Of a stretch of 64,000 bases of DNA, positions 28,496 to 54,172 are shown in pieces; within the stretch, counting starts at the first letter, position 1; each line of letters starts with the position of its first letter. Origin of the DNA: a bacterium. GTDB taxonomy: Bacteria > UBA10199 > 2-02-FULL-50-16 > JAJFLM01. Position numbers and translations under genes: made by a program. The notes below the pieces were generated by a model. It did not search any database and was not told the DNA's origin. It was given only the letters and a program-made list of their open reading frames with translations. The stretch covers positions 192,001 to 256,000 of the forward strand of contig CBDCFN010000015.1 of the NCBI GenBank assembly GCA_965216315.1, written 5' to 3'.

Positions 28496-28499
28496 GTCG

Positions 28500-28579
28500 A
28501 TTCGCAAAGCGAAAGCGCAGCTTCCGCTTTGCTTGAGTCATGGGGAAGAAAACTCTCTCCCCCCTGACAACCCCCCATC
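28500..28579 (-). repeat. Repeat family R2 (two-hairpin element), copy C
   Basis: Minus strand GATGGGGGGTTGTCAGGGG..CCCCATGACTCAAGCAAAGCGGAAGCTGCGCTTTCGCTTTGCGAAT. Confidence 0.85.
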
Positions 28580-28584
28580 GCGAG

Positions 28585-29730
28585 CTACACCTTAACAGAC
28601 GCATCGAAAAGCCGGGCATGCTCTTCCAAAGCAAAGCGGTCAGTCATGCCCGCGATATAATCGCAGACAACGCGCTCGACACGGATATCATCGACTTTGT
28701 GACTGACATCGGCGGGTAGGATGTTGGGGTTTTTGCAATAGGCGCGAAAGAGATCTTCTAGGATGAGCTTCGCCTTCTCAGCCATACGTTCCACGCGAAA
28801 ATGTTTATAGAGTTTGCTATATAGAAACGCCTTGAGCTCTTTATTGGCGTGTTTCATTGTCGCCGAAAAGCCAACGCATTTGGCAGCGGCCTGCCGAACA
28901 TCCTCTAAACTACTAATGTCATGCGTCTCAATCGTTGCTTCCGTCGTTTGAACGAGGTCGGTTACCAGGGCATTGAGAATCGCCTTGACTGTTTGTCGTT
29001 GATGAACGAGTTCATGCTCGGAACAAGTCGCGCGCGTTTGTTCATAATGCTCCTTCCACAGGCTCACCTCTTGTAATTGCTCAACTGTAATCAGGCCCGA
29101 ACGCAACCCGTCATCTAAGTCATGGCTATTGTAAGCAATCTCATCGGCGATATCGACGAGTTGGGCTTCCAGTGTCGGTTGACCAATTTTTTGAAAGGCC
29201 GCTTGGGATTCATCATAAGACGTCGCGTGTTTGGCAATACCTTCGCGAACCTCATAACTGAGATTCAGCCCCGGAAAATCGGGATACCGTTTTTCAAGCA
29301 AGGTAACAATTCGTAGTGACTGCTTGTTATGCTCAAAACCCCCGAACTCTTTCATCAAATGATTCATGACATCCTGACCGGAGTGCCCAAAGGGAGTATG
29401 CCCTAAATCATGTGCCAGAATAATCGCTTCAGCGAGTTCTTCGTTGAGACGCAGCGCTCGCGCGATCGTCCGCGCAATCTGTGAACCTTCTAAGGTATGC
29501 GTCAGGCGCGTCCGGTAGTGATCACCTTCATGGAAGACAAAGACCTGCGTCTTATATTCAAGCCTTCTGAAGGCATTGGAATGGATAATACGATCACGAT
29601 CGCGTTGAAAAGCCGTTCGATAAGTGTGCTCTGGTTCTTCATATTCACGACCCTGCGAGGCCTTGCTCTGACAGGCATAAGGAGCCAGCATCTTGGTCTC
29701 TAAATTTTCATATTCCTGGCGGGTTAACAC
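28585..29730 (-). CDS. dgt: Deoxyguanosinetriphosphate triphosphohydrolase
   Basis: RTAFQRDRDRIIHS.AFRRLEYKTQVF, RTRLTHTLE, HDLGHTPFGHSG, DYIAGMTDRFA. Confidence 0.95.
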   Translation of the reverse strand: MLTRQEYENLETKMLAPYACQSKASQGREYEEPEHTYRTAFQRDRDRIIHSNAFRRLEYKTQVFVFHEGDHYRTRLTHTLEGSQIARTIARALRLNEELAEAIILAHDLGHTPFGHSGQDVMNHLMKEFGGFEHNKQSLRIVTLLEKRYPDFPGLNLSYEVREGIAKHATSYDESQAAFQKIGQPTLEAQLVDIADEIAYNSHDLDDGLRSGLITVEQLQEVSLWKEHYEQTRATCSEHELVHQRQTVKAILNALVTDLVQTTEATIETHDISSLEDVRQAAAKCVGFSATMKHANKELKAFLYSKLYKHFRVERMAEKAKLILEDLFRAYCKNPNILPADVSHKVDDIRVERVVCDYIAGMTDRFALEEHARLFDASVKV

Positions 29731-29794
29731 AGCCCTGGTGGTAGCGAAATGTATTCATTTCCGCAAGATGCATATTAGTATATTATCTCCCTCC

Positions 29795-31114
29795 ATGGGT
29801 TTTCGTCGCATCCTGGTTATTGCCCTCTGTATCGGGTTGCCATTGACCGGCCTGGCAGCCGGCCTGCAAGGGCAGGCAGAGATTGCCTTTGCGGAGGGAT
29901 TGATCGCCTACCAAGAGCAAGACTATGTCGGCGCCCAACTCTATTTTGATCGTGCCGCCCAACTCAATCCACAACATGAAAGTGCTGCTTTTTTTAGAGG
30001 CCTGAGTTCCTACCAACGAGGCCAATATGCTAAAGCCATCCCTGACTTCAAAGCAGCGGCGGCGGCCAATCCTCAGGCTGTCGAACCGCATTACTATCAG
30101 GGCCTTGCCTATTATCATCTTAATCGTAAAGACGAGGCCCTGCGCGCCTTTAAGCAAACGTACAAGCAGGCACCACCAGGCGATATCAGCAGGAATGCCA
30201 GCAATTACATTGCAGAAATTACCGGTACGGTTCCGACATACCGTGGCCGCCATGGCAAACCTTGGTTTTTCTTTGCCAACGTAGGCACTTTGTATGACTC
30301 CAATGTCTCCTTAGACCCTGAAGACCTTACTCTCGCGACATTGCCCAGCGATCAGGATGACATCCAAATCTCAGCCTATGTTGGTGCTGGTTACCATCTC
30401 GTGAGTGGCCCCGTGTACCGTTTCACAAGCGCGGCCTCTTATTATCAGGCATTTTATCCTGATCTTAACTCATTCGATTTTGGTCTCGCTCGGGCTGAGT
30501 TACGTCACCAATGGACTGTTGGAAAATTTTTATTCAAATTACCCTTTGCCTATGAATTTTCTTTGCTCGGACATGATAAATATATGCAACGACCTGAAGT
30601 GGCCCCGTCAATAGCTTATTGGGCCGGCAAGCAATACCTAATCCGTATGCGTACACGACTCCGCTACAATGATTTCTTTCAAAATCCTTCAAGTGCTGCC
30701 CAAGATCGCGATGCATGGAATATGGGAATCGAGCTGGCGCAGTTTTTTTATTTTGATAAACAGCGGCGCTATTTTAAATTGTCTTATAATTTTGAACGTA
30801 ACTGGGCCCAAGGAAATGACTGGGACTATCTGGCTCACACGATCGGAGCCGCCTTCTTCAATCCAATAGTTTGGAAAATCGATTCTTATCTGTTTGCCAC
30901 GTACACCGTTAATCGTGACTACGATAATGTCGATTCTATCTTTGGGAGTCGCCGGCAGGATAATTATCAAAACTATGGAATTCGTTTTTCCCGACCTATT
31001 GTTAAAGGCCTAAGTCTAAGTCTTCATTATGGTTTTCAACGTAATCGTTCCAATTTGGCTATTTTCCAGTACAATAAACATACAGCAGGGGTAACATTTG
31101 CGTTTCGCATCTAA
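29795..31114 (+). CDS. TPR plus outer-membrane beta-barrel protein (Slam/DUF560-like architecture)
   Basis: Signal peptide, N-terminal TPRs, YDSNV barrel start, aromatic-rich alternating strands. Confidence 0.8.
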   Translation: MGFRRILVIALCIGLPLTGLAAGLQGQAEIAFAEGLIAYQEQDYVGAQLYFDRAAQLNPQHESAAFFRGLSSYQRGQYAKAIPDFKAAAAANPQAVEPHYYQGLAYYHLNRKDEALRAFKQTYKQAPPGDISRNASNYIAEITGTVPTYRGRHGKPWFFFANVGTLYDSNVSLDPEDLTLATLPSDQDDIQISAYVGAGYHLVSGPVYRFTSAASYYQAFYPDLNSFDFGLARAELRHQWTVGKFLFKLPFAYEFSLLGHDKYMQRPEVAPSIAYWAGKQYLIRMRTRLRYNDFFQNPSSAAQDRDAWNMGIELAQFFYFDKQRRYFKLSYNFERNWAQGNDWDYLAHTIGAAFFNPIVWKIDSYLFATYTVNRDYDNVDSIFGSRRQDNYQNYGIRFSRPIVKGLSLSLHYGFQRNRSNLAIFQYNKHTAGVTFAFRI

Positions 31115-31115
31115 G

Positions 31116-32078
31116 ATGAAGAGGGGTGCCCTTTTTATCACGCTAAGCCTGTCGCTACTCACGTTCCCCGCCTTAGCGAAAGCTGCACCCCCATCCATAG
31201 GCCGCGTTGTCCATGTTCAGGGGGAAGTGCATGTCACGCGTGCCGAAACAAGCCACACCCTCTCTTTTAATGATGCTATCTACCCGATGGATATCCTCGA
31301 AACGGGTGATGGCGAGCTAAAAGTCCTCTTCAAAGACCAAACCCTATTACGACTCATTGCCCATTCTAAAGTCTTAGTCTCCAAATACGTTTATAATCCC
31401 CAACACGGAATACGCGAGGGCATTTTTGATATCATCAAAGGCAGTGTCCGAACGATTGTTGAAAAGATGGCAAATATGAAAAACGACGACATTGTCTTGC
31501 GCACACCGACGGCGGTCGCAGGTATTCGCGGTACCGACGTCGGAACCCGCGTTGCCGGCAAGAAAACTCAATATCTGTGCTTTGATGGCCTTATTGAAAC
31601 ATTCTTTCGCAAAATGCCTAATCTCAAAGTTTTAGTTGGTGCGGGACTATTTACGACAATCGACGGATCCCCACCAACTACGCCTCGGCCCATTCCCACA
31701 CGACTTCGTAAAATGTTTTCCGGCAACCCGCAGCTCACAGACATCCTCTCACAACAGGGGTTTGCGCCACTGCCTGCTGGAACAATTAATCTACCGGATG
31801 TGAGTGGTGAAAACCCATTTGCAAGCACCTCCCCCGCCGCCGAAGCGCTTCTGCCCGGTGGCGCTAACGATATACGTGAAGTGATCCCCGCGGCAGGAAG
31901 CGGTGGCGATAACGACATTCCGGGCGATCCCCCCATCGACACAGGTCCCGCAGGAGATCCAAACGGGAATGGAACCGGTGGGGGCACAACTCCTCCGACC
32001 GACCCGCCCGACAATGGAGGGAATAGCGACCAACATTCACCCGTTAAAGTCCCAACGAATTTTCCGGAGGGTGGGTGA
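31116..32078 (+). CDS. FecR-domain periplasmic protein with Pro/Gly-rich tail
   Basis: IGRVVHVQGEV..DILETGDG..LRTPTAVAGIRGT. Confidence 0.88.
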   Translation: MKRGALFITLSLSLLTFPALAKAAPPSIGRVVHVQGEVHVTRAETSHTLSFNDAIYPMDILETGDGELKVLFKDQTLLRLIAHSKVLVSKYVYNPQHGIREGIFDIIKGSVRTIVEKMANMKNDDIVLRTPTAVAGIRGTDVGTRVAGKKTQYLCFDGLIETFFRKMPNLKVLVGAGLFTTIDGSPPTTPRPIPTRLRKMFSGNPQLTDILSQQGFAPLPAGTINLPDVSGENPFASTSPAAEALLPGGANDIREVIPAAGSGGDNDIPGDPPIDTGPAGDPNGNGTGGGTTPPTDPPDNGGNSDQHSPVKVPTNFPEGG

Positions 32079-33067
32079 TGCGACGCTCATTTACCCTCAT
32101 CAGCTATGCTTGTCTCGTCTTGCTCGCCGCTTGTCAGGGGAATGAAAAAGCTATGGTCACGGTTGAAGTTCCCGCCGGCTTTGCCGCTGAAAATCTCGTC
32201 GAACGCATTGTCTTGCAGGTTACGGCTCCGGACATGACTCCCATCACGGACACGCTGTTACCCCCTTTTACAAGTAACCGAACCTTCAATCTGCAAGTCC
32301 CTGTCGGAACGGAACGCTTTTTTACAGTGACAGCCATCCTCTCCACAACGCCCACCGCCGGCTTTATTGGATCCGCGATCAGTGATATTGATAAAGGGCT
32401 TCATACGATCCCGGTCACAATGAACTTCGTGAATTTTGCTGAGGACCTCCCGGATGACGGTCTCAACGGCAACCCTATTGATCACCCGGAACTAATGGAT
32501 GTTGCTTTCGAGCGCGACAACATCGATGCGCTATGCTCACAAGAAGATGCTGTCTTCATCGACATGCGGCTCGATAGCAACTTCAATAATTTCCCAATTG
32601 GTCCACGCTTTATTATCGAATTTGATCACGATGCCGACGCTACAACAGGCAGCCAGAGCTCATTTATTGAACAAACTATTGCTAAAGCAGGTGTGAATCT
32701 CCCCACCGCTTTTAGCCAAGGGACCGAACGTTTTATTCTTATCGATGCCGACAACCGTTCTCCTAATGGCATCGCACGACTTGAACTTCATGAAATATTT
32801 GAAGACAACTCGATAACTCTCCTATTGATTGGACCCCAACGGCCGCTCTTTGAAGCAGGTTATGATTCAACTCTCCAAATTCTTACGCTCTGTATCGCGG
32901 AATCCTTATTCAATGAGCTCAAAGCGGGCATCGATGATGATGGCCTTGGCCTTTTTAACGTGTTAACAGGGCATTTGAATGGTACCGGTCAGTTCTTGCC
33001 AAATGATATGGCCTATACCAATGGAGCGATTATTTACGATTTCTCTTTTAGTACGAGCGGACTCTAA
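32075..33067 (+). CDS. Hypothetical lipoprotein
   Basis: Lipobox LAAC; translationally coupled to both neighbours. Confidence 0.8.
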   Translation: MMRRSFTLISYACLVLLAACQGNEKAMVTVEVPAGFAAENLVERIVLQVTAPDMTPITDTLLPPFTSNRTFNLQVPVGTERFFTVTAILSTTPTAGFIGSAISDIDKGLHTIPVTMNFVNFAEDLPDDGLNGNPIDHPELMDVAFERDNIDALCSQEDAVFIDMRLDSNFNNFPIGPRFIIEFDHDADATTGSQSSFIEQTIAKAGVNLPTAFSQGTERFILIDADNRSPNGIARLELHEIFEDNSITLLLIGPQRPLFEAGYDSTLQILTLCIAESLFNELKAGIDDDGLGLFNVLTGHLNGTGQFLPNDMAYTNGAIIYDFSFSTSGL

Positions 33068-33921
33068 TGGAACTCTATTTTTGGGGCGTAAGAGGCTCCA
33101 TCCCAGCACCCGGCGCCAAGACCCATCGATATGGCGGTAATACCTCCTGCCTTGAAATTAAAAGCGGTCGCCAGCGGCTCATCTTTGATGCGGGCACTGG
33201 GCTGCGGGAACTGGGACATAAAATTCACGTGCGCCCAGGGACTGAACTTCATATTTTTTTGAGTCACTGTCACTTAGACCACATGAGTGGCCTGCCTTTT
33301 TTCCATCCCCTGCACAAACGGGGCGTTACGGTCCATCTATATGGGCCGCACGGCAAACAACGTCCCTTACGTCAAATCATCCAGTCCTTGTTCTCCGAGG
33401 AATTCTATCCGATTCCGTTTAACAAACTCGCCGCCACACTACGCTTCCATTCTTTGCAGAAGTCACAGCGTAAAATAGGGCCCTTTACGATTACAAGCCA
33501 CCCTTTAAACCATCCAGGCTCCACCTTGGGCTACGTCATCGCAACCAGCAACAAACGCGTCGGCTATGTCACCGATCACGAACCTATTGAAGGTTTTAGA
33601 CACGTCAAAGGAATATCTTCACGCCAATATGAAACAAATCTTCACCAATGGCTCACGGGCCTCGATGTCCTCATTCATGACGCCCAGTATTTAGACCGCC
33701 AATACGGACAATACCGCGGTTGGGGTCATTCACCGTGGCACTATGTCATCTCGCTTGCAGAACAGATCGTCGCCAAACAACTGATTCTTTTTCATCATTC
33801 TCCGGATAATAGCGATGCGCTCCTCGAAAAGGAGCTCATCCGTGTGCAGAAGCGTCTAGCGAAACAAAAACACCGGTTGCGTATTTCGCTGGCCAAAGAA
33901 CGAAAGCGATACAAGCTGTGA
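33067..33921 (+). CDS. MBL-fold metallo-hydrolase (RNase Z/phosphodiesterase-like)
   Basis: WGVRGSIP, YGGNTSC, DAGTG, SHCHLDH, HDAQY, GWGHS, LFHH. Confidence 0.9.
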   Translation: MELYFWGVRGSIPAPGAKTHRYGGNTSCLEIKSGRQRLIFDAGTGLRELGHKIHVRPGTELHIFLSHCHLDHMSGLPFFHPLHKRGVTVHLYGPHGKQRPLRQIIQSLFSEEFYPIPFNKLAATLRFHSLQKSQRKIGPFTITSHPLNHPGSTLGYVIATSNKRVGYVTDHEPIEGFRHVKGISSRQYETNLHQWLTGLDVLIHDAQYLDRQYGQYRGWGHSPWHYVISLAEQIVAKQLILFHHSPDNSDALLEKELIRVQKRLAKQKHRLRISLAKERKRYKL

Positions 33922-35810
33922 AACGCCGTTGGATCCATTTCGTCCTCGTCATCGTCCTCCTTTTCGCGCTCTTCCCGATACTCTTTGATTTACCACTGAT
34001 CCATTGGCTTGAGCTCAAGTCGATTGACCAGCGTTTTCATAACCGCGGGCCCATTCCAGCTACCGGTGACGTTGTTGTCGTCGCCATTGATGAAAAAAGC
34101 CTCCACAAAATCGGCCGCTGGCCGTGGTCTCGTGACAAGGTCTCCCAGCTCATTGAAGGTGTTCGCAAGGCCGGGGCGCGCTGGATTGAAATGGATATCG
34201 TTTTTTCAGAGCCATCTCCTCAAGACACGCAACTCGCTCAATCGTTACAAGCAAGTGACAACGTTATTTTAGGTTATTTCTTTTACCAAGATCCGGACGA
34301 GCTTGAATTAGCTGAATTGACTCCTGCGATGATCGAATCAAGCTATCAGTCTATTTTACCAACGGCCCTTCCGGATATCTCCGCTTTAGATCAGGCATTG
34401 ATACCCATGGTGGGCGTCCTCTCCAATACCACAATGCTGGCCCAGGCAACTCGAAGTCGCGGCTTTTTTAACGCCGTACCCGACGAGGACGGCGTCATTC
34501 GTCATTTTCCTCTCATGGTCAGCTATCGCAATCATATTTTCCCCTCACTAGCTCTCGAAACATTCTCCCACCATGAGAGTTTCGATGCGGTGCCGGTAAG
34601 CGATAGAAATGGTGCGTTAGAAGGTTTAAGTATCGGCAAGCGTTTTATTCCCACTGACAGTAAAGGACAGATCTGGATCAACTATCGGGGGGGACGTGAG
34701 CAATTTCAGATCTACTCGGCAGCTGATATTTTAGACGGAAGCGTGGATCCAAAGACACTGCGAGATAGAACGGTCCTCATCGGCGCAACCGCTGTGGGAG
34801 TTTATGATCTGCGCGTCACTCCCATCTCACCTAATTTTCCCGGGGTCCTTATCCAGGCTAATCTGATCGACAATCTATATAAGGGTGATATTTTAATCTC
34901 CAACCCATGGACCAAATTTGCTTCCTTAGTACTGACCTTGATCGTCATTTTTGGGCTCGTTATCATCTTGCCACGCATTCGCATTCTATACGGTTTGGTT
35001 CTCATGGTTGCGCTGGTAGGACTCCACTATATTTTGGTTCAATGGTCATTCGGACAGGGCTATATCCTCGCCCAAATCGTGCCAGCGACCAGTTGGACGC
35101 TTCTCTTTGTCAGTTTGACTCTCTACCGGGGGCTGACCGAAGAAAAGGAAAAGCGACTGATCCGCAAGGCCTTTCAATCCTACCTGCACCCTGACATCGT
35201 CGCTGAGCTAACGAATGACCTGGAGAAATTAAAGCTCGGCGGACAACGTATGGACTGCACCATTCTCTTTGCAGATGTAAGAAACTTTACCGTCATTTCA
35301 GAACGGATGTCTCCAGAGAAGTTAGTCGAACTCATGAATGCTTATTTTGATCCCATTGCAAAAGCAATCATTCAGGCAGGCGGCTACATTGATAAATTTA
35401 TTGGCGATGCCATCATGGTCGTGTTTGGGGCTCCCAAACCCAGTAACAAGCACGCGGTCATGGCCTGCCGAACAGCCCTCGCCATGCAACGGATCGTCAC
35501 AAACTTGGCGCCTTCATTAGAAGAAAAATTCTCAATAGAACATTTTGCCATCGGCATCGGCCTGCATAGCGGACCCGTTATTGTCGGTAATATCGGGACG
35601 AAAGAACGTCTCAACTACACGGTCATGGGCGACACAGTGAATCTGGCCTCAAGGCTGGAAGAAGCTACCAAGGCCCTAGAAGTCAGCATCTGTTTGAGTG
35701 AAACAACTCAGCAACTCATCGCCAACCAGTTGGAAACGCATTATCTCAATGAAATCACCGTCAAAGGGAAACAGGCCCCAATTCGGGTCTATGAACTTAT
35801 CGATGAATAA
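33918..35810 (+). CDS. CHASE2-domain adenylate cyclase
   Basis: IDEKSL..GRWPWSR, DEDGVIR, 3 TMs, LFADVRNFT, DKFIGDAIM, YTVMGDTVNLASRLE. Confidence 0.95.
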   Translation: MKRRWIHFVLVIVLLFALFPILFDLPLIHWLELKSIDQRFHNRGPIPATGDVVVVAIDEKSLHKIGRWPWSRDKVSQLIEGVRKAGARWIEMDIVFSEPSPQDTQLAQSLQASDNVILGYFFYQDPDELELAELTPAMIESSYQSILPTALPDISALDQALIPMVGVLSNTTMLAQATRSRGFFNAVPDEDGVIRHFPLMVSYRNHIFPSLALETFSHHESFDAVPVSDRNGALEGLSIGKRFIPTDSKGQIWINYRGGREQFQIYSAADILDGSVDPKTLRDRTVLIGATAVGVYDLRVTPISPNFPGVLIQANLIDNLYKGDILISNPWTKFASLVLTLIVIFGLVIILPRIRILYGLVLMVALVGLHYILVQWSFGQGYILAQIVPATSWTLLFVSLTLYRGLTEEKEKRLIRKAFQSYLHPDIVAELTNDLEKLKLGGQRMDCTILFADVRNFTVISERMSPEKLVELMNAYFDPIAKAIIQAGGYIDKFIGDAIMVVFGAPKPSNKHAVMACRTALAMQRIVTNLAPSLEEKFSIEHFAIGIGLHSGPVIVGNIGTKERLNYTVMGDTVNLASRLEEATKALEVSICLSETTQQLIANQLETHYLNEITVKGKQAPIRVYELIDE

Positions 35811-35811
35811 A

Positions 35812-35853
35812 TAAAAAAGGGCAGAGGTTGCGTAGAACCCCTGCCCTTTTTAT
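35812..35853. terminator. Bidirectional terminator
   Basis: TAAAAAAGGGCAGAGGTT..AACCCCTGCCCTTTTTA between convergent genes. Confidence 0.8.
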
Positions 35854-35870
35854 TCAAACCCTGCTGCTAA

Positions 35871-36995
35871 TTACTTACGACGTCTCAAAATCCCGAGCGT
35901 CCCAAGTCCCAAGGCGAGTAGCGTCGCACCCGCAGTTGAACTTCCCGCTGCCGTGATCAAGGAACAACCCCCCGCGGCATTGAGTGCATCTTCAAGGGAA
36001 CCATCGTCGGCGGCACTGCCTTCATCACCACTCCCGGTCCCATCGTCACTGCCTGCGGTGCCGTCGGAACCACCTGTGACGGGATCGGCACTTTCAGAAC
36101 CTTCTCCGCCGTCACCTTCTCCGCCGTCGTCGCCATCGCCGCCGTCGCCGCCGTCGCCGCCGTCACCACCATCACCGCCGTCGCCGCCGTCACCACCGTC
36201 ACCACCGCCGCAATCGCCGGCACAGTTTTCGGCATCTTCTCCACGCTCGCAAACGCCATTGCCACATTCGACAGATGGATCTTCATCGACGCACGAATTC
36301 GAACAACCGTCTCCGTCGACGTTGTTGCCATCATCGCAAGACTCGGGAACATCGACAACGCCATTGCCGCATGTCGTCGTTCCATCACCATGATTGGTGC
36401 AATCATTGCGGCACATGTCACCATTGTTGGTCACGTTGCCGTCATCGCAACCCTCACCATCATCTAAAAGGCCATCACCGCATTCACCCGCTTCGATCAG
36501 ACAATTTTCATCACAGCCATCTCCATTGTCGGTGCCTCCATCTTCACATTCTTCACCGGCTTGGAGAATACCGTCGCCACATGCTGGAGACCCTTCATTC
36601 GTACAATCGGCAGCACAGCCATCGCCATCCTCATTATTGCCATCATCACATTCTTCTAGATCGGGAGCTTCATTATCGCCCCAGAAATTGGCATCCGGGA
36701 TGGTATCTTCCGCGTTTGTATTGCTATGAGAGTCATGAATTACTCCATCACCACATCTCGCTAGAATACAATTTGACTTACAATCATCATTGTCATTCGC
36801 GTTATAGTCTTCGCAATGCTCGCTGTCACCTTCGCCATTCTCAAGCCCATCGTTGCAGACAGTATTAACCGCTGTGTCAGCGTAGGTTGTTACCGTAAAA
36901 CCCAGCGCGAGCACACAGGCGAAAACTCCCATTAAAGTATATTGAACTAGTCGTGTCATATCCCGACCCCCTATATCTGAACCCATCATATTCAT
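35871..36995 (-). CDS. Myxococcus-type Cys-rich repeat (DUF4215-like) surface protein with full GGC-TM-RRRK tail
   Basis: CGDG..EECDDGN..DGDGC repeats; tail GGCSLITAAGSSTAGATLLALGLGTLGILRRRK. Start may be 36959. Confidence 0.88.
   Translation of the reverse strand: MNMMGSDIGGRDMTRLVQYTLMGVFACVLALGFTVTTYADTAVNTVCNDGLENGEGDSEHCEDYNANDNDDCKSNCILARCGDGVIHDSHSNTNAEDTIPDANFWGDNEAPDLEECDDGNNEDGDGCAADCTNEGSPACGDGILQAGEECEDGGTDNGDGCDENCLIEAGECGDGLLDDGEGCDDGNVTNNGDMCRNDCTNHGDGTTTCGNGVVDVPESCDDGNNVDGDGCSNSCVDEDPSVECGNGVCERGEDAENCAGDCGGGDGGDGGDGGDGGDGGDGGDGGDGDDGGEGDGGEGSESADPVTGGSDGTAGSDDGTGSGDEGSAADDGSLEDALNAAGGCSLITAAGSSTAGATLLALGLGTLGILRRRK
36105..36210. repeat. 9-nt tandem repeat encoding a (GGD)n linker
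   Basis: Repeated ccgccgtcg/ccaccgtca units. Confidence 0.85.
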
Positions 36996-37133
36996 TAAGC
37001 GAAACGCGTTCGTTTCCCTACGGTTTCACTTAAGCCCTGAAATTGTGTATGCGAATTTCCCCGAGATTCCCAAACCAATGTCTATCAATGGACAAAATTC
37101 ACTCCAAAGTCAATGAATTTGGTCTGATTGGGG

Positions 37134-37883: not shown

Positions 37884-37887
37884 CCAA

Positions 37888-37981
37888 TTAAATCCCTCCT
37901 AGCCTCCCTTTACAAAAGGGAGGGACCTCAAGTGGAAACCGATATCTCCCCCTTTGTAAAGGGGGATCGAGGGGGATTTAA
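37888..37981. repeat. Repeat family R1, full TTAA-bounded MITE-like copy
   Basis: TTAAATCCCTCCTAGCCTCCCTTTACAAAAGGGAG...CTCCCCCTTTGTAAAGGGGGATCGAGGGGGATTTAA. Confidence 0.85.
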
Positions 37982-37982
37982 C

Positions 37983-39208: not shown

Positions 39209-39225
39209 GGGGAAAGGCTAAGCTA

Positions 39226-39873: not shown

Positions 39874-39888
39874 CGTGACCATAGATTG

Positions 39889-40092: not shown

Positions 40093-40171
40093 GATGAGGG
40101 ATTGTTAAGGGAGAGCGCGGTATCTCTCCCTTAACTAAAGCCTCCTGGAAGCTGTGCTTTCAGGAGGCGAA
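40093..40171 (+). repeat. Repeat family R2, copy B
   Basis: GATGAGGGATTGTTAAGGGAGAGCGCGGTATCTCTCCCTTAACTAAAGCCTCCTGGAAGCTGTGCTTTCAGGAGGCGAA. Confidence 0.85.
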
Positions 40172-40262
40172 ACGAGTTACCCCGCCTTCCGGTATGCCCT
40201 TAAAAAGGGCTCCAGACAAAGGCGGGGCGAGGGAGGTACTTTTAATGGATGACGCTAACGCG

Positions 40263-45443: not shown

Positions 45444-45446
45444 AAC

Positions 45447-45890
45447 TTACTTCTTTTTTTCCTTAGAGTCTTTTTTTTCAGCTGGTTCGGCCCCCGTGAG
45501 CACTTGGGCCACCTGTTTCTTATCCAACTTGATGCGGACATTTTCGGCAATCTCCACACCAACCGTCGCATCAGTGACCGAAGTAATCTTTCCGAAGATG
45601 CCCGAAGCCGTCACGACCTCGTCGCCCCGTTTCACTTCGCTGAGCATCGCTGCGTGTTTCTTTTGTTGTTTCGCTTGGGGACGAATGAGGAGAAAATAGA
45701 AGATCAAGAAAACCAAGATCATCGGCATAAAGAGACCGAGACCGCCGCCGGCTCCCTTGCCGCCTTCCCCGCCTGGAGCCGACATCGCCCAAGAGACGAT
45801 GGGTAGAAGACTTAATAAAATTCCCCCGAGGCCCCCTTTATAAAGAGGGGAAGCCCAGGTGCTAATCAATGCCTTGCGCCCGTTTCTCAT
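45447..45890 (-). CDS. yajC: Preprotein translocase subunit YajC
   Basis: IFYFLLIRPQAKQQKKH..GDEVVTASGIFGKI. Start uncertain. Confidence 0.95.
   Translation of the reverse strand: MRNGRKALISTWASPLYKGGLGGILLSLLPIVSWAMSAPGGEGGKGAGGGLGLFMPMILVFLIFYFLLIRPQAKQQKKHAAMLSEVKRGDEVVTASGIFGKITSVTDATVGVEIAENVRIKLDKKQVAQVLTGAEPAEKKDSKEKKK
45817..45851. repeat. Repeat family R1 half copy, in the yajC 5' region
   Basis: AAAATTCCCCCGAGGCCCCCTTTATAAAGAGGGGA; translates as PLYKGGLGGIL. Confidence 0.65.
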
Positions 45891-47010
45891 AAAATTCCTT
45901 TTTAAAGGCCACGAAACGATCGGCCTCGATAGCCACCCTCATCTCGCGCATCAAGTTCAAATAATAATAAAGGTTGTGATACGTCCCCAACCGTGAAGCC
46001 AAAATCTCTTTAGATACAAAGAGATGGCGAAGGTAGGCCCTACTATAATGACGACAAGTCGTGCAAGAACAATCTTGCTGAATAGGGCGCTCATCCCGGC
46101 TAAAGCCCGAATTACGGATGTTCATGTCGCCGTAACTCGTGAAGAACTGGCCATTGCGGGCATTGCGCGTCGGCAGGACACAATCAAACAGATCGGAACC
46201 GGCGGCGACCCCTTCGACGAGGTCTTCCGGATAGCCCATGCCCATCAGGTAACGCGGCAGGCTTGCGGGAATCCGCGGCGTAATTGCTGAAACGATCTTG
46301 CGCGTCTCAGCAATGGGCTCACCAATAGCCAATCCGCCCAGCGCAATCCCGGCAAAACCTTCACCGGGAGATTTCTCATTGAATTCAAGTAAGCGTTCCA
46401 GACATTCTTGTCGCAAATCGCTATAGACCGAGCCTTGGACAATACCGAAAAGTCCTTTGTCCGCAGGCGATGAAGATCGAAAATGTTGAAGACTCTGTTC
46501 TTCCCACTGCAGGGAAAGCTCCATGGAACGCCGCGCTTCTTCCGCGGTCGCCGGATAAGGTGTACATTCATCCAGCACCATGATGATGTCACTGTCCAAG
46601 GCAAGTTGGATTTCGATCGAACGCGCGGGGCTTAAGAAAAATTCCGTCCCATCGACGTGGGAACGGAACCGTATCCCCTCCGGTTCGAGCTTGCGCGTCG
46701 CCGCCAACGAATAGGCTTGGTACCCCCCGGAATCCGTCAGGATGAGCCCCGGCCACTGCATGAATCGATGGAGACCCCCGAGTTCCGCAATCGTCTTCTC
46801 ACCCGGTCGCACCATCAGATGATAGGTATTGCAAACCAACAGCTCGGTCCCGATGGCATCGAGTTCATCGACCGTCATCGCCTTGACCGTCGCCTGGGTT
46901 CCGACCGGCATAAAGGCCGGCGTATGAACCCGCCCACGAGCGGTCTCAATCAAACCCGTCCGCGCTTCACTCTCGGACGAATTCGCATCGATTTGGAATG
47001 AAAAGGCCAT
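45862..47010 (-). CDS. tgt: tRNA-guanine transglycosylase
   Basis: TPAFMPVGT, NTYHL, LTDSGGYQ, DCVLPTRNARNG, CSCTTC..HN. Confidence 0.97.
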   Translation of the reverse strand: MAFSFQIDANSSESEARTGLIETARGRVHTPAFMPVGTQATVKAMTVDELDAIGTELLVCNTYHLMVRPGEKTIAELGGLHRFMQWPGLILTDSGGYQAYSLAATRKLEPEGIRFRSHVDGTEFFLSPARSIEIQLALDSDIIMVLDECTPYPATAEEARRSMELSLQWEEQSLQHFRSSSPADKGLFGIVQGSVYSDLRQECLERLLEFNEKSPGEGFAGIALGGLAIGEPIAETRKIVSAITPRIPASLPRYLMGMGYPEDLVEGVAAGSDLFDCVLPTRNARNGQFFTSYGDMNIRNSGFSRDERPIQQDCSCTTCRHYSRAYLRHLFVSKEILASRLGTYHNLYYYLNLMREMRVAIEADRFVAFKKEFYEKRAQGID

Positions 47011-47113
47011 GGGCTCACCCTCTTAACCTATCAATAACACTTCGACAAGAAATCGCGTCTTGGCTGATCGGGGTCCAATATGCTAGCCCTGTCGCCTCAG
47101 TGAGGAGGACTGC

Positions 47114-47344
47114 ATGGAATCCGAATTCTTATTTGCAACGATGTTTAATCTGGGAATTAACCTTATCTACACCATCTTGGCGCTGGTCTTAGGTATTGTC
47201 GCTCTTGTCGTCATCGACAAGAAATTACTGAAGTCGATTATCGTTGAGGACGAGTTAAAGAATGGGAATATCGCGATCGCTATTTTCGCCTCAACGATCT
47301 TGATCTTTGTGGCCCTCATCGTTTCGTTCGGCCTCAAAGGGTGA
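47114..47344 (+). CDS. DUF350-like small membrane protein
   Basis: Two TMs flanking EDELKNGNIAIAI; GAGGAGG SD. Confidence 0.75.
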   Translation: MESEFLFATMFNLGINLIYTILALVLGIVALVVIDKKLLKSIIVEDELKNGNIAIAIFASTILIFVALIVSFGLKG

Positions 47345-47359
47345 CCAAGGTAGTCCGCA

Positions 47360-48172
47360 GTGAAACGATCTAAATTCGCCATCTTTGTTGTAATTGTACT
47401 CTTGATCCTGCCTTACGTGTACCGACAGTTACAGGATAAAAATGAGGTTCAATCGAACATTGATGCCTCCTTAGCAGAGCTCAACAAGAAAATGTCACAA
47501 CCGGTGAACCAAGCCGGCTTCATCGAGGAAGTCGGTTCGGGCAATGTCCTCACAGAACAACACGTTCAATATACTGTCAGGGATTTGAGTCGCGAAACCC
47601 AAGCTCGGGTCCGCTCCTGGACTTTCGGCCAGGCGCCGACGGCGACATTATCCGCCCAGGGTCTCGACACCCTCCATCACTTTGTAAACAGTTATCTGAT
47701 CGGATTCAAACCATTCGATACCGATAAAATTTGGGTTCCCCTCTATACCTTGGCGTTGCGGAAAAAATACCAATACGATCATCTGCAATACAGTGGGCTC
47801 ACGGATATTTGGCAGAACTCTTTGCAAGCATACTATTATACCCGTGGTGATTGCGAGGACCATGCAATTGCATTGGCCGACTGGCTGATCAGTGCCGGTC
47901 ATGATGCCCGTGTCGTCTTAGGTAATTTCAAAGGAGGTGGCCACGCATGGGTCGTCTTGCTGCAGGACGGAAAGGAATATATTATTGAAGCCACCAATAA
48001 AGAGAAAATACGAAAACTCAAACATTATCCGCTCGCTCGCCTCGCGACTCAATACCATCCCAAATACCAATTTAACCGCACCAATTTTTGGGCCAATACG
48101 GGAAACCAATTCACAACCCGTTATTCGGGTTCTCACTGGGTCTTACGGTCCCGATTTAGTGGCACGCTGTAA
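47360..48172 (+). CDS. Transglutaminase-like cysteine protease domain protein
   Basis: GDCEDHAI, GHAWV, IEAT; N-terminal anchor. Confidence 0.8.
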   Translation: MKRSKFAIFVVIVLLILPYVYRQLQDKNEVQSNIDASLAELNKKMSQPVNQAGFIEEVGSGNVLTEQHVQYTVRDLSRETQARVRSWTFGQAPTATLSAQGLDTLHHFVNSYLIGFKPFDTDKIWVPLYTLALRKKYQYDHLQYSGLTDIWQNSLQAYYYTRGDCEDHAIALADWLISAGHDARVVLGNFKGGGHAWVVLLQDGKEYIIEATNKEKIRKLKHYPLARLATQYHPKYQFNRTNFWANTGNQFTTRYSGSHWVLRSRFSGTL

Positions 48173-48212
48173 TTGATTGCCGCCAGCGGCTAAACTGCAG
48201 TATAGAGACGCC

Positions 48213-48599
48213 GTGAAGTTTTTGCGTCTTATAATCACCCTCATGCTGCTCGTCAGCGCGCCTTCCCTAACGAAGGCCGCCGATGAAATCGCTGACGCCA
48301 ATCCAGATGTCGATTTCTCAGACCTTATCGTCGGCATCAGCTACGCGATAAGCGCACCGGAGGCCACGGACTCTTGTTTATGCGACTGGTCGCTCTCTAA
48401 TGAATTTATCGCCGCTCTCAATCCTGCCGATGAATGCGACACCCTACTCATCGTCTTTATCCGCGGGGGTGGGCAATTGACTGTCGAGCTTGACTGCGAA
48501 GGGGAGGAAATAACCGAGTTCACTCAAGTTTTCATGGCACACACCCCTGACCCGGCATTAACTATATTCAAAGGAAGTGGCTGCTCACTACGCCCTTGA
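48213..48599 (+). CDS. Small secreted protein with short GSGCSLRP tail
   Basis: Signal peptide after GTG 48213; C-terminal FKGSGCSLRP. Confidence 0.6.
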   Translation: MKFLRLIITLMLLVSAPSLTKAADEIADANPDVDFSDLIVGISYAISAPEATDSCLCDWSLSNEFIAALNPADECDTLLIVFIRGGGQLTVELDCEGEEITEFTQVFMAHTPDPALTIFKGSGCSLRP

Positions 48600-48699
48600 C
48601 CATTTTTACAATCTTTTAACATCGGTTCGCTTGATTTCTTCGACAAAAGCACGCAGCCTTCAAAGATAGTTATGGAAATATCTTTCTAGGAGGTTCAGG

Positions 48700-50163
48700 A
48701 TGGGTGCAAATCGATTGATGGGAGGCGTTGTTTTTGGAGCCTTCCTGATATTTTTTTCATCACAGGTATCCGCTGCGGTTTTCACTGTTACAAATACGGA
48801 TGACGCGGGAGCGGGCTCGCTGCGGCAGGCTATTATTGATGCCGAGACCTCCGGTGGATCCGATGACATTAATTTTGATGTGACAGGGACGATCACACTA
48901 AACAGTGCCTTACCGACCTTGACACAAAGTGTGAGCCTATTGGGGCCCGGTGCCAATCAGCTAACAATTGATGCCAACGGCGCCACGACAAGTGCCCGCA
49001 TTTTTACACTCGATAGCCCCGCTGATGACCAAAGTTTCAACATCTCGGGGCTGACCCTGACCGGGGGACGCTCTGCCGGCGGCCCTAACAGTGATGGTGG
49101 GGCCATCCGCATCGAAAGTGGAGACACACTCGATCTTGCTTTTTGCACCTTCACAAATAATGACACTTCGATCGCAGACCGTAATGGTGGTGCTATTGAC
49201 ATTGACTTTAATGCTACCGTCACAATCGACAGCTGCACGTTCAGCAACAATAATGCAACTGACGGCGGCGCTATTCAAAGTGGTGGGAGTCTCTCGATAA
49301 ACAATAGTACGTTCTCCAGTAACGAAGCCAAGAACACTGGAGGAGGTGGTGCTGTATTGAGTAACGGCGGCGATCTCGTAATCACGAATAGCACATTTAA
49401 TAACAATAAAGCCGAAGGAAGTGCCGGCGCTCTCTATACCAGTGTCAATGCATCTATCAGCAACTCAACCTTTGCGGCAAATGAAGCGGGCCCCACTGAG
49501 GACGGCGGTGCTATCTATATTGTCGCAGGCGCGAATGTCACCATAGACAACGTAACAGTTAGCGGGAACACCGCTGGCTCTGGCGCGGGTATCAGCGCAG
49601 TAACGGGAACCGGTACGATCAAGAATACTATTCTTGCCAATAATACCGGCGGCAACTGCGACGGGGCTGTCGTCTCCGCTGGCAACAATATCGACAGTGG
49701 AACAAGTTGTGGCCTAGGCAGCAGCGGTGACCAGAGCTCGACCGATCCTTTGTTAGCCACTCTGCAAAATAACAGTGGGCCCACTCGGACTATGGCCCTG
49801 CAAGCAGGAAGTCCCGCCATCGATAAGGGATCCTGTACGGATATCGGCGGCAACGATGTATTTCTTGATCAGCGCGGTTCCGAGCGTCCTGCCGGGACAA
49901 CCTGTGACATCGGTGCCTTTGAAGTTTCGGTCTGTGGAGATGACATATTAGGTGCGGATGAAGAATGCGACGACGCCAATACAATCGATACCGACGACTG
50001 CACCGCCGCATGCAAAGACAACATTTGTGGAGACGGGAGCGTCCTCGAAGGCTTTGAAGATTGCGATGACGGCAATACTGACGATGGCGACGGCTGTGAC
50101 AGTACTTGTGTCGATGAAGAAGGGGTCGCCGGCATCGGCGGATGTGCTCTAATCCGCCGCTAG
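48700..50163 (+). CDS. Beta-helix/choice-of-anchor-Q surface protein with Cys-rich repeats and short GGCALIRR tail
   Basis: VTNTDDAGAGSLRQAI, GGAI repeats, DPLLATLQNNSGPTRTMALQAGSPAID..DQRG..CDIGAFE, CGD..ECDD repeats. Confidence 0.88.
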   Translation: MGANRLMGGVVFGAFLIFFSSQVSAAVFTVTNTDDAGAGSLRQAIIDAETSGGSDDINFDVTGTITLNSALPTLTQSVSLLGPGANQLTIDANGATTSARIFTLDSPADDQSFNISGLTLTGGRSAGGPNSDGGAIRIESGDTLDLAFCTFTNNDTSIADRNGGAIDIDFNATVTIDSCTFSNNNATDGGAIQSGGSLSINNSTFSSNEAKNTGGGGAVLSNGGDLVITNSTFNNNKAEGSAGALYTSVNASISNSTFAANEAGPTEDGGAIYIVAGANVTIDNVTVSGNTAGSGAGISAVTGTGTIKNTILANNTGGNCDGAVVSAGNNIDSGTSCGLGSSGDQSSTDPLLATLQNNSGPTRTMALQAGSPAIDKGSCTDIGGNDVFLDQRGSERPAGTTCDIGAFEVSVCGDDILGADEECDDANTIDTDDCTAACKDNICGDGSVLEGFEDCDDGNTDDGDGCDSTCVDEEGVAGIGGCALIRR

Positions 50164-50218
50164 GGCCCTATTTTTTAGTCTTGCATAATGATAGGGAATC
50201 CGGTCAGACTAGGTCACC

Positions 50219-51460
50219 ATGAGCCAACAAGAACCCAAAAAACGTCCGGCGGTTTCAAGCCATTTTGATGACGATGCCTTTGCCCCCGGGCAGATTATCC
50301 GTAAGGGCATGGGGCATAAAGAGGCCATCCAATCCGACTTTGAACGGGATTACCACAGCGATATCATTAGCAAAATAATCGCTAACGATTACATTTACAC
50401 TGAAAAGGATATTACTTTCTATTTGGCCACGGATTTTGGTTTTTGTTACGGCGTCGATCGTTCTTTAGAGCTGGCTCACGAAACAATTAAACACTTTCCG
50501 GACCGGCGTATCTTTCTAACAACTGAAATCATCCATAATCCCTATGCGAATAAAAATTTGCGCAAGCTGGGGGTCCAATTTCTTTCCGGTCAGTACAAAG
50601 CCGAGCTAGGGATCGAAGATGTGACTCGAGAGGACATTGTCATCCTGCCTGCATTTGGCACCGACGTCGCCATGCTGAAAACGCTTAAGACCAAAGGATG
50701 CACGATGGTCGATACTATTTGTGGTTCCGTACTCAATGTCTGGAAGCGCGTCGAAGATTATGCCAGCGACGGATATACATCCATCATTCACGGCAAGTAT
50801 TACCACGAAGAATCGGTAGCGACTTCGTCGCGGGTACTCGAATATAATGGCGGCAAATATCTTCTCGTGCTCGACATGAAAGAAACCGAGTATGTCGCCA
50901 ACTACATCCTGAACGGCGGCAATAAAGCTGAATTTCTTGAAAAGTTTAGCAAGGCGGTTTCACCGGGCTTTGACCCGGATAAAGATCTGGAAAAAATCGG
51001 CCTGGCCAATCAAACAACTATGCTCTCTAGTGAGTCCTTGGCAATTGCTGATTATTTAAAAGATGTCATGATCCAAAAATACGGGGCTGGCAAACTTGCG
51101 GAACACTTCCGCAACTTCGATACGATTTGTTCGGCGACTGAAGACCGTCAACAGGCGATTCTCAAACTGAAAGATGCACCGCTTGATGTCATGATCGTCA
51201 TTGGTGGCTACAACTCTTCGAATACCAACCACTTGTGCAAAATTGCCGGTGAGTATTTTACTAGCTTCCATATTGAATCGGCAGAGTGCATACTATCGGC
51301 TCAGGAAATTCAACATAAGCCTTACGGTCAATGGGAGACGGCAATCACTCAAGACTGGCTCCCTGAAAAACCCTGCCGTATCGGAATCACGGCTGGCGCT
51401 TCAACGCCAAATCAGGTGCTCGGTTCTGCGATTGAAAGGATCTTATCGTTTGATTTTTAA
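50219..51460 (+). CDS. ispH: 4-hydroxy-3-methylbut-2-enyl diphosphate reductase (long form)
   Basis: FGFCYGVDR, EIIHNP, DTIC, NQTTM, DTICSATEDRQ, GGYNSSNT, ITAGASTP. Confidence 0.95.
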   Translation: MSQQEPKKRPAVSSHFDDDAFAPGQIIRKGMGHKEAIQSDFERDYHSDIISKIIANDYIYTEKDITFYLATDFGFCYGVDRSLELAHETIKHFPDRRIFLTTEIIHNPYANKNLRKLGVQFLSGQYKAELGIEDVTREDIVILPAFGTDVAMLKTLKTKGCTMVDTICGSVLNVWKRVEDYASDGYTSIIHGKYYHEESVATSSRVLEYNGGKYLLVLDMKETEYVANYILNGGNKAEFLEKFSKAVSPGFDPDKDLEKIGLANQTTMLSSESLAIADYLKDVMIQKYGAGKLAEHFRNFDTICSATEDRQQAILKLKDAPLDVMIVIGGYNSSNTNHLCKIAGEYFTSFHIESAECILSAQEIQHKPYGQWETAITQDWLPEKPCRIGITAGASTPNQVLGSAIERILSFDF

Positions 51461-51478
51461 TGGAGATAGGGAGGAACT

Positions 51479-52084
51479 ATGAAAAACAGTCATAAAATAA
51501 CCTGCTTAGTTATGGGTATGAGTTTAGTTGCATTCGCGCACTCCGGTCTCGCTAAGGGTACGGAAGTTCCGGAAGACACGTCCCCTTCTGCGTGTTCCGG
51601 ATCGATGAGCAAAGCAGAATGCCACCGCTGGTATGAAATGGTCGAAAAAGAAAATCCCGACGCCTGTGCCGGCTATAAAAAGGGCTCCAGAGAGTGCGGC
51701 GACTGGCATGCCGTCAAAAAATATGTTCCACCACCGCCGCCGCCTAAAGTCGAACCGCTTGTCTTGCACGGCGTAACCTTTGAGCTTGATAGCAGCCAAA
51801 TCCGTCCTGAATCGTATCCTGTGCTTGATGCGAACGTCACCATGCTGCAAAAGCATCCGAATGCCAATGTCGAAGTCGTTGGACATACGGATAGCACCGG
51901 CTCCGAGGCCTATAACCAAAAACTCTCGGAGGCACGCGCCAAGTCGGTCATGAACTACTTCATCAGCAAGGGTGTCTCCGCAAGTCGACTATCGGCGAGC
52001 GGACGCGGGGAAAGCAGTCCGGTAGCTGATAATAAAACGAAGGAAGGGCGCGCACAAAACAGGCGCATCGAACTGCACCGTTAG
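51479..52084 (+). CDS. OmpA-family peptidoglycan-binding protein with Cys-rich N-terminus
   Basis: Signal peptide; GVTFELDS; VGHTDSTGSEAYNQKLSEARA; NRRIE. Confidence 0.9.
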   Translation: MKNSHKITCLVMGMSLVAFAHSGLAKGTEVPEDTSPSACSGSMSKAECHRWYEMVEKENPDACAGYKKGSRECGDWHAVKKYVPPPPPPKVEPLVLHGVTFELDSSQIRPESYPVLDANVTMLQKHPNANVEVVGHTDSTGSEAYNQKLSEARAKSVMNYFISKGVSASRLSASGRGESSPVADNKTKEGRAQNRRIELHR

Positions 52085-52085
52085 A

Positions 52086-53153
52086 CTAAGTCGAAGACGG
52101 GCTGTTCAGGATCAACATCGCATCGCCGAAACTAAACAGTCGGTAATGCTGAGCGACCGCTTCGCGATAGGCGTCCAAGATAAATTCGCGACCGGCAAAT
52201 GCGGAGACCAGCATCAACAAGGTCGACTTGGGCTGATGGAAGTTCGTCAGGATACGGTCCACAACTTGAAACCGGTAGCCCGGATAAATAAATTTCCGCG
52301 TATATCCGGGTCCGGCCTGGAGGGGAGACTGTCCGGTCTCTCCTCCAGGATCCCAGACTGACTCCAAAGTTCGTACTGTTGTCGTCCCTATCGCCGTCAC
52401 CCGTCGCCCTTCTTTTTTGGCACGTTGAATTTTCTCAAGGCTTGCCGCAGGGATCTCATAACTCTCTCCGTGCATTTTATGTGCGGTCACATCATTCGCT
52501 CGGACGGGCTGAAAAGTATCGCGACTCACGTGCAAGATCACTCCCGCGGTCTCACAGCCACGCGCATTGAGATCTGCCAATATCTCGTTCGTAAAATGAA
52601 AACCCGCTGTCGGCGCCGCCGCTGCGGTCCCAGTCTTGGCGTATACCGTCTGGTAGCGTTGCACGTCCTCGTGTTTGGATTCAAAGGGGGCGTCACGTTT
52701 GATGTAAGGCGGTAGTGGTGGAAGACCGGCAGCCGTGATTAAATCAAGTAAGTCCCGTGAAATAGGCGAAAAAATAATCGTCCATTCATCTCCACGACCC
52801 GACAGTCTCCCTTTCAGTTTACCGCTAAATGTAACCTCCACTCCATCTTTCAGTTTATTTGCCGGACGTACCAAGCAGGTCCATTCAGCATCGCGCCGTT
52901 GATCGAGTAAAAGAACTTCCACCTGGCGGCCTGTTTTCGTCTGTCCATACAGGCGTGAAGGCATGACTCTCACTTCGTTGAAGACCAGAAGATCCTCAGG
53001 ACCAAAAAAGCTCGTGAAATCAATGAAGCGCTTGTGTTGCCAACTTTTTTGGAATGGATCGAGGACCATCAGACGAGAAGCACTGCGGTCGGGAAGTGGT
53101 TGCTGCGCAATAAGTTCCTCGGGGAACTCATAATTAAATAATTCGATGTCCAT
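52086..53153 (-). CDS. queA: S-adenosylmethionine:tRNA ribosyltransferase-isomerase
   Basis: PEELIAQ, PLPPYI, RYQTVYA, AAPTAGFHF, TNFHQPKSTLL, FSFGDAM. Confidence 0.97.
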   Translation of the reverse strand: MDIELFNYEFPEELIAQQPLPDRSASRLMVLDPFQKSWQHKRFIDFTSFFGPEDLLVFNEVRVMPSRLYGQTKTGRQVEVLLLDQRRDAEWTCLVRPANKLKDGVEVTFSGKLKGRLSGRGDEWTIIFSPISRDLLDLITAAGLPPLPPYIKRDAPFESKHEDVQRYQTVYAKTGTAAAAPTAGFHFTNEILADLNARGCETAGVILHVSRDTFQPVRANDVTAHKMHGESYEIPAASLEKIQRAKKEGRRVTAIGTTTVRTLESVWDPGGETGQSPLQAGPGYTRKFIYPGYRFQVVDRILTNFHQPKSTLLMLVSAFAGREFILDAYREAVAQHYRLFSFGDAMLILNSPSST

Positions 53154-53156
53154 GGA

Positions 53157-54047
53157 TTAATAGGAACGTTTAATTTCAACGCCCGGATAATAAAAATTCA
53201 ATATCTCACGATACCCTCTACCGCGATCCGCCATTCCGCGTGCGCCCCACTGGCAAAGCCCGACGCCGTGCCCATTACCCGAACCGACAAGTATCAATTG
53301 TTCGTTGAGTTCAAGTATATTGAAATTGGTCGAACGAACCCGACTATAGCCCAAGAGCTGTCGAAAGCGATTGCTGTTAAGCGCAACCGTTTCAGCATCC
53401 GTAATGATGGCAACCTCATGAACGCGTTGGCTGTCCTCGTCGTTGATGGGAATCACATGACTGACTTCACCGCTCGCAAGACGCTGATCTTGAAGCATCA
53501 AGCTGAGTTCCGCTTTGCTCAATTCGATTTCCCAACCCTGATCAGGACACGCACGACAAAAAGGATCGGCCTTCGCCGTATAAAAAGTCAGTTGTTTCGC
53601 CCAGGTCCAGACGTTCGCCGCCTGCTCAGACCGCCCGCCACAACAGCTATGAAAAAAAGCCGGTATTACATTTCCCTGCCACATCAGGGTCTGTCCGCGT
53701 GTCGTCCGCACGGCTGTCACCAGCTTGGAGGGATATTCATCCAGCATGCGGAAGGCCTGGTCATTAACGGATGCCTCCAGATCATAAGCCGCATGCTGCG
53801 GATGGGCCTTGCGGTAAAGTGCGTAGGTACGTGCCGCAATCGCCTGCGCCTTCTGCGCCTCCAGCGGCCATTCCTTAGGAAGCTCCGCGGCCAAGACACC
53901 GAACAAATAGTCATCCATTGCCATTTCAACCACCTGAAGCGGATAGCGCGAGAGTGCCACGCGCACCACCGGCGTCACCCCCGCAAAAGCCGTATTCGCA
54001 AGGATTAACAAACAACAAACGACAAAAATGTGACGAAGACGGAGCAT
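53157..54047 (-). CDS. SpoIID/LytB domain protein
   Basis: YLFGVLAAE..WPLEAQKAQAIAARTYA, FHSCCGG, GNGHGVGLCQWGA. Confidence 0.93.
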   Translation of the reverse strand: MLRLRHIFVVCCLLILANTAFAGVTPVVRVALSRYPLQVVEMAMDDYLFGVLAAELPKEWPLEAQKAQAIAARTYALYRKAHPQHAAYDLEASVNDQAFRMLDEYPSKLVTAVRTTRGQTLMWQGNVIPAFFHSCCGGRSEQAANVWTWAKQLTFYTAKADPFCRACPDQGWEIELSKAELSLMLQDQRLASGEVSHVIPINDEDSQRVHEVAIITDAETVALNSNRFRQLLGYSRVRSTNFNILELNEQLILVGSGNGHGVGLCQWGARGMADRGRGYREILNFYYPGVEIKRSY

Positions 54048-54095
54048 AGAAGTGCCTGAATAGATGCCAAGAATAAGCTGGAATTGCAATTTACA

Positions 54096-54172
54096 GATGG
54101 GGGTTGTCAGGGGGAGCGCGGTATCACCCCCTGACTAGAGCACAATGGAAGCTCAGCTTTCATTGTGCGAAT
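54096..54172 (+). repeat. Repeat family R2, copy A
   Basis: GATGGGGGTTGTCAGGGGGAGCGCGGTATCACCCCCTGACTAGAGCACAATGGAAGCTCAGCTTTCATTGTGCGAAT. Confidence 0.85.

Follow-up and report, generated by a model that had tools for sequence, protein, structure and literature searches.

What kind of DNA is a ~79-nt repeat that encodes nothing and folds into two hairpins, and how does it come to lie beside so many genes? The question is raised by a 64,000-nt stretch (the window; positions 192,001 to 256,000 of contig CBDCFN010000015.1, assembly GCA_965216315.1) from a bacterium of the UBA10199 lineage, in which a first-pass annotation had reported three dispersed copies of such an element. All three are present, with the stems quoted for them (Table 1), and are named here by their first positions. 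The family to which they belong is real and undescribed, and its footprint is unusual: dispersed copies, covarying stems, a single folded strand, polar junctions with neighbouring genes and duplicated gene ends that look like alleles.

The repeat unit comprises GATG and a G-tract, hairpin 1 (9 bp, 6-16-nt loop), a 4-nt joint, hairpin 2 (13 bp, 3-nt loop) and a terminal GCGAA(T/A). A profile made from the three window copies finds 30 copies in the 2.96-Mb genome at E<=1e-5, a few of them inside genes, with pairwise identities of 52-96% (median 73%). A covariance model built on 26 full-length own copies (R1) gives 32 genome matches at E<=1e-3 and, with filters off, recovers no full copies in the window beyond these three (76-102 bits; best other non-overlapping match, 10 bits). 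The GATG(G/A)GGG and GCGAA(T/A) ends are kept throughout the class. Some details of the first description needed revision. The 28500 copy, taken for the more degenerate one, is near the genome's majority type, and the similar loops around GCGCGGTA are present but mark a minority subtype (~6 of 26 copies). Of the 26 own copies, 25 retain the supposedly invariant G-T pair inside GGAAGC/GCTTTC, but the inner stem is replaced in relatives, where the loop motif GCTTTGC occurs in 31/63 copies and tandem GA/GA of the outer stem in 36/62. Two copies carry inserts of 60-90 nt in the hairpin 1 loop (L059:1242-1389 and L250:401-539), the second of which resembles another hairpin repeat of the same genome.

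Covariation is as strong as had been proposed. Two-sided changes affect 13/22 pairs among the 26 own copies, with 94.5% of alignment cells paired compared with 39-59% in slid controls, and 20/22 pairs among 63 copies from 12 other genomes (90.8% compared with 31-45%); the latter were outside model building but were aligned to the model, so that their alignment leans toward the structure. G-T pairs exceed A-C pairs by 45 to 4 in own copies and by 45 to 7 in relatives, which identifies the GATG strand as the folded one. DNA folding z-scores on this strand are -5.4, -6.7 and -5.9 for the 28500, 40093 and 54096 copies, and none of 200 shuffles folds as well. Together, the alignments support strand-specific selection on structure. 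As anticipated, Rfam offers no counterpart: the window has no match at the gathering threshold, and nothing falls on the element near threshold in nine loci.

R1 has matches in 42 of the 93 class genomes, with a patchy distribution inside families, and a phylum-wide search yields matches in this class only. Among 185,579 species a strict sequence pattern retrieves 18 loci, mostly titled uncultured Deltaproteobacteria, and a looser one retrieves 80 metagenome loci, which contain 62 model matches. Viral contigs contain no full match to either of two patterns and ten chance-level hairpin-2 matches, which the model rejects; BLAST against phages and plasmids gives no matches.

Only one end of the element meets other features. 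In the own genome, the 3' end lies 1-4 nt from a tRNA or tmRNA terminus in 15/30 copies (13 full and 2 half copies; 0.03 expected), and the nearest tRNA on the 5' side of any copy is 86 nt away. The junction is always made by the end of hairpin 2, eight times before a tRNA 5' end on the same strand and seven times at a tRNA 3' end on the opposite strand. Relatives repeat the pattern (15/63 copies with the 3' end at a tRNA or tmRNA, 8 sense and 7 antisense, versus 0/63 with the 5' end), and tRNA junctions in the metagenome loci are again confined to the 3' side. None of the three window copies lies at a tRNA. Perfect hairpins are the 3' neighbour of 2/14 non-tRNA own copies, versus 0.1-0.9% in the background; further 3' neighbours are ribosome sites, start codons, TTGACA and a parS palindrome. 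In the window, a 9-bp inverted repeat (40180-40227) begins 7 nt past the 3' end of the 40093 copy, and a TTGACA hexamer starts at the last T of the 54096 copy. Before a tRNA-Cys, L144:597-1054 has four near-identical tandem copies whose ~50-nt spacers resemble, by eye, each other and the 5' flank. Individual junctions vary: one copy (G000:C15:361335-361459), whose hairpin 2 loop carries an additional branch, abuts one of three parS palindromes, a related variant that lacks hairpin 1 directly adjoins tRNA-Cys at C16:1558843, and an exact head-to-tail dimer of a 75-nt unit, possibly an assembly artefact, separates the ribosome site and start codon of carB (L129:1501-1650). At the opposite end, base -1 is C in 22/29 own and 31/42 other copies and mostly A in the remainder. 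Pairing of the 5' G-tract with a C-rich target was considered and set aside as too weak, CCCC lying within 20 nt in 19/71 cases versus 5-9 in more distant windows.

The covariation with G-T wobble on one strand, the half of own copies that touch tRNA or tmRNA genes and the tolerance of the element inside RNase P RNA would all suit a structured RNA signal (for tRNA precursor processing, stability or termination) selected beside stable RNA genes. We consider this very improbable, since the folded strand is co-transcribed with the tRNA in only about half of cases, one copy ends at parS, the 54096 copy lacks a terminator-like T run, a related strain carries an internal deletion and the duplications described below go unexplained. 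The sense/antisense symmetry points instead to DNA, because an acceptor stem is a stem foot on either strand. The earlier proposal of selection as RNA or single-stranded DNA (ssDNA) thus holds for selection, and a ssDNA repeat fits better than an RNA gene, given the near-equal tRNA orientations, the parS end and the loss of hairpin 1. The deletion, in one contig of run X3 (depth 5, a ~93% identical strain), covers window positions 54097-54144 (48 bases), removes hairpin 1 and half of hairpin 2 and has ATGG at both ends, which suggests that the 54096 copy is an old one, capable of decay. The RNase P RNA gene itself carries an inserted copy (L003:300-383 = G000:C15:160349-160428), and a relative has one at about the same place (L070/L266).

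The second mark of the family is duplication of gene ends, which, like the polar tRNA junctions, the first-pass annotation had not picked up. Direct repeats of 41-57 nt flank 5/30 own copies, a score attained at 1/300 random sites, and duplicates of the element family measure 24-59 bp, variable in length and extending beyond the 30 bp by which long target duplications are recognized. At the 28500 copy, the end of a dGTPase-like gene is repeated behind the element, and all 7 differences over 41 aligned bases are at third codon positions, 6 of them silent. The same polarity holds in all 11 protein cases (2 own, 9 in relatives): the working gene is on the element's 5' side, the shared stretch ends at or near a start or stop codon and gives way to a non-homologous spacer of 4-30 nt, and the orphan starts 0-5 nt past GCGAAT. 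Only spacer and element lie between the duplicates, with no restriction-modification genes. Eight tRNA duplications are likewise polar, with the working gene on the 5' side, and the orphan piece begins 0-4 nt ahead of a D-, anticodon- or T-arm foot in 8/8 (background 37%; P 0.003, 6 independent events). Pairs of tRNA-Ser with tRNA-Ser and a 20-nt low-complexity match (L062) were left out of the duplications.

A non-autonomous transposon of the MITE (miniature inverted-repeat transposable element), REP (repetitive extragenic palindrome) or PATE (palindrome-associated transposable element) type, making long staggered cuts, would leave duplicates that were identical at first and then diverged. 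Dispersed, species-typical copies (median identity as above) and several identical duplicates agree with it, as does lineage-specific presence after dgt: of the dgt loci of ten relatives, nine extend past the stop codon and carry no element at that place, and the 28500 copy is therefore lineage-specific. A single copy decaying after a staggered cut should, however, place at most half of the differences at third positions, which hold 49/67 (P about 1e-4 versus <=50%; L259, whose frame is unassignable, is omitted, with a worst case of 49/69, the frame of L269 is ambiguous, and reading frames were picked by us from the longest recognisable gene). Because of this excess, both copies look like once-selected alleles. 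The variable-length, non-homologous spacer between the 5' duplicate and the element, the lack of both terminal inverted repeats and a fixed duplication length, and the absence of duplications at PATEs (PMC3119063; this and later comparisons apply to the covered portions of the cited papers) also speak against such a transposon, already a weakened explanation and to us an improbable one.

The reading that we prefer, at roughly even chances, is that the element is a two-hairpin DNA repeat that codes for nothing, is specific to one strand and has a single fixed end, the 3' one; it would probably spread as ssDNA along with its 5' flank and probably be joined by a hairpin-reading strand-transfer enzyme. 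A donor strand made of gene end, short intergenic spacer and element would pair with the corresponding gene in a related cell or on the sister chromosome, the gene body acting as homology anchor, and the element's 3' end (GCGAAT, often with 4 nt ending in C) would be joined to the resident strand close by. Joining 25-70 nt inside the gene would yield the order new gene end, spacer, element, old gene end. Joining further on would cost dispensable DNA and bring the element directly up against the next hairpin or indispensable feature (a tRNA terminus, parS, a ribosome site or a start codon), and repeated rounds could produce arrays like that at L144. The enzyme is the least certain part: an HUH (Y1-type) protein acting in trans has the closest chemistry, and none is linked to the element. 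The strand-specific fold, conserved mismatches and precise end fit the HUH chemistry of TnpA-REP and IS200/IS605 (PMC8266576, PMC3333891, PMC6006769); hairpins bound by HUH proteins are strand-specific and mismatch-bearing (PMC8266576), and those of class 3 Y1 proteins have GA/GA stems (PMC6006769 Table S1). More tentatively, the family may consist of protein-less, one-ended 'homing hairpins', whose ssDNA fold would direct an enzyme to join the 3' end at the feet of resident stem-loops during homologous strand invasion, and which would spread between strains without breaking genes while exchanging core-gene and tRNA ends among alleles.

A serious rival, if an unlikely one, dispenses with a dedicated enzyme: the hairpins would be passive hot spots at which heterology met during natural transformation or repair is resolved by one-sided illegitimate joining (homology-facilitated illegitimate recombination), with later deletions bringing the element up against essential features. 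No enzyme is linked to the element, the allele-like duplicates count in its favour as well, flush neighbours include ribosome sites, start codons and TTGACA besides hairpins, and the genome encodes ComEC and DprA, long target duplications being reported mostly in competent species (PMC2853133). It leaves unexplained the invariant ends and tandem GA pairs across families, the strict use of a single end, and orphan tRNA pieces that start at arm feet, where no selection acts.

Several results weigh against the strand-transfer reading itself. Duplications are missing from most copies. Contigs of five runs contained neither an empty allele nor a circle or donor allele, and reads at the dgt site yield no empty allele. 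The linker ends in C at just 13/21 duplicated copies and is missing altogether from tRNA-flush copies, no fixed target tetranucleotide was found, and the copies have no leading- or lagging-strand bias (15/30). Within protein genes, 1/11 junctions fall at hairpin feet versus a 14% background, so that hairpin-foot targeting there is unsupported. Five duplications have a partial copy on the 5' side; four of these hold an inverted copy of a second repeat family (family 2, below), and that at L233 is unexplained. The search for an enzyme adds to the list. Y1_Tnp was not found in 9/37 genomes with at least two element copies, 98%-complete ones included; Y1 genes are otherwise near-ubiquitous, and their counts correlate negatively with those of the element (kinship not corrected). 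Across 34 Y1, GIY-YIG or DUF559 loci there is one weak partial element match, ~1.4 kb away among the 31 Y1 loci scanned. Y2_Tnp is present in just 12/93 genomes, and 15 Y2 loci contain no element. As judged by BLAST clusters and reading of the sequences, there is no recurring mobile gene among 240 open reading frames (ORFs) near 85 loci, only housekeeping genes.

Other searches for a mobilizing gene ended similarly. The HUH/Y1 transposase flanked by element copies that the first-pass annotation suggested looking for was not found; no gene of the own genome has a split element copy around it, its GIY-YIG and DUF559 genes have no copy nearby, and it has no reverse transcriptase. Linkage to Y1 or Y2 (IS91-type) enzymes was rejected; their presence does not track the element.

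The element departs in defining features from each known family with which it was compared; in appearance it is nearest to an atypical REP or PATE. It shares many extragenic copies (30) with REPs, and near-terminal palindromes, the lack of terminal inverted repeats and a non-coding sequence with PATEs; the terminal inverted repeats and short fixed target duplication of MITEs are missing. REPs and bacterial interspersed mosaic elements (BIMEs), which are served by TnpA-REP (the REP-associated tyrosine transposase, RAYT), also form many intergenic, strand-specific, mismatched hairpins and tandem arrays (PMC6006769, PMC3333891, PMC8266576), and GA/GA stems and TTT loops also occur in REP class 3 and subclass 2.6. 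Unlike REPs, the element has no GTAG/GTGG 0-2 nt 5' of a hairpin foot (definition in PMC6006769), has two hairpins over ~79 nt and no flanked Y1 gene, and no matching row was found in the portion of Table S1 of that paper that was compared; allele-like gene-end duplications occur here and not in the REP descriptions compared. IS200/IS605 ends and PATEs (PMC3119063) resemble it in their near-terminal palindromes, absence of terminal inverted repeats and of coding capacity, and, at most copies, C at or beside the 5' junction, but PATEs make no target duplication and match autonomous elements, whereas the element has long duplicates and no parent was found for it. The closest working likeness is ISCR1/IS91 (PMC3940617), with one precise end, a flank carried on one side and a duplicate left by homologous recombination; ISCR1 mobilizes upstream DNA by rolling circle, rescued by homologous recombination. 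The differences are the lack of a Y2 transposase, 79 nt rather than kilobases, and a flank of chromosomal core genes. Insertion with long target duplication (PMC2853133) likewise gives, with no transposase, variable duplicates >30 bp, often located where genes or tRNAs end, but carries restriction-modification genes, whereas in this family a hairpin repeat recurs, its polarity is fixed and the duplicates are codon-biased. Rickettsia palindromic elements (PMC2229807) are similarly tolerated in RNase P RNA and inside ORFs; they are single long stem-loops with terminal inverted repeats, and the covered text describes no polar tRNA junction. Full-text searches of the non-subscription literature revealed, in the passages covered, no account of the element sequence, nor of any small repeat that makes polar duplications of gene ends in which alleles are mixed.

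Table 1. Positions of the element copies, the duplicated gene ends and the family 2 copy in the window.
Feature	Positions	Strand	Remarks
Element copy (C of the first-pass annotation)	28500..28579	-	GATG-G-tract, hairpin 1 with G.A mismatch, hairpin 2, 3' GCGAAT
Element copy (B)	40093..40172	+	Intergenic, between SLT gene and 209-aa ORF; no duplication
Element copy (A)	54096..54172	+	Between divergent SpoIID-like and GGDEF genes
Working 3' end of dGTPase-like gene (HD + HD_assoc; 28585..29730)	28586..28626	-	6-nt spacer to element; putative incoming allele
Linker CGAC	28496..28499	-	4 nt, after element 3' end
Orphan copy of dGTPase-like gene end	28457..28498	-	Last 13 codons and stop; putative displaced allele
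Family 2 copy	55577..55653	+	Same polar behaviour, on the reverse strand
Orphan 3' end of uracil-DNA glycosylase gene	55536..55572	-	Adjoins family 2 copy; one silent difference from working copy (55689-55725)

Family 2 has 40 profile matches in the genome, and its core motif occurs in 41/93 genomes of the class, in up to 80 copies. Its duplications have the same polarity, with 18/19 differences at third positions, and at six own loci an inverted family 2 copy lies 15-37 nt before the element. One family 2 copy (L284:2501-2570) lies within the reading frame of a prophage protease-capsid gene. Further repeats accompany these two. A third, unrelated two-hairpin repeat at window positions 37887-37981 (C-tract, TTTACAAAAGGG) has many genome copies, and a DUF559 gene (L088) is flanked by hairpins like those of this third type. 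The genome's single Y1 gene (RAYT-like, 247 aa; L001:419-2040) is flanked by a different repeat of its own and by a second copy of its own 3' end.

It has long been an open question how small bacterial repeats spread when no transposase is known for them. The footprint of this family can be read, in a fixed end accompanied by the donor and the displaced allele, which makes the order of events testable. If the strand-transfer reading is true, such repeats would provide a route by which the ends of core genes and the flanks of tRNAs are exchanged between lineages, and would call for caution in searches for RNA motifs, as covarying DNA folds can mimic new non-coding RNAs.

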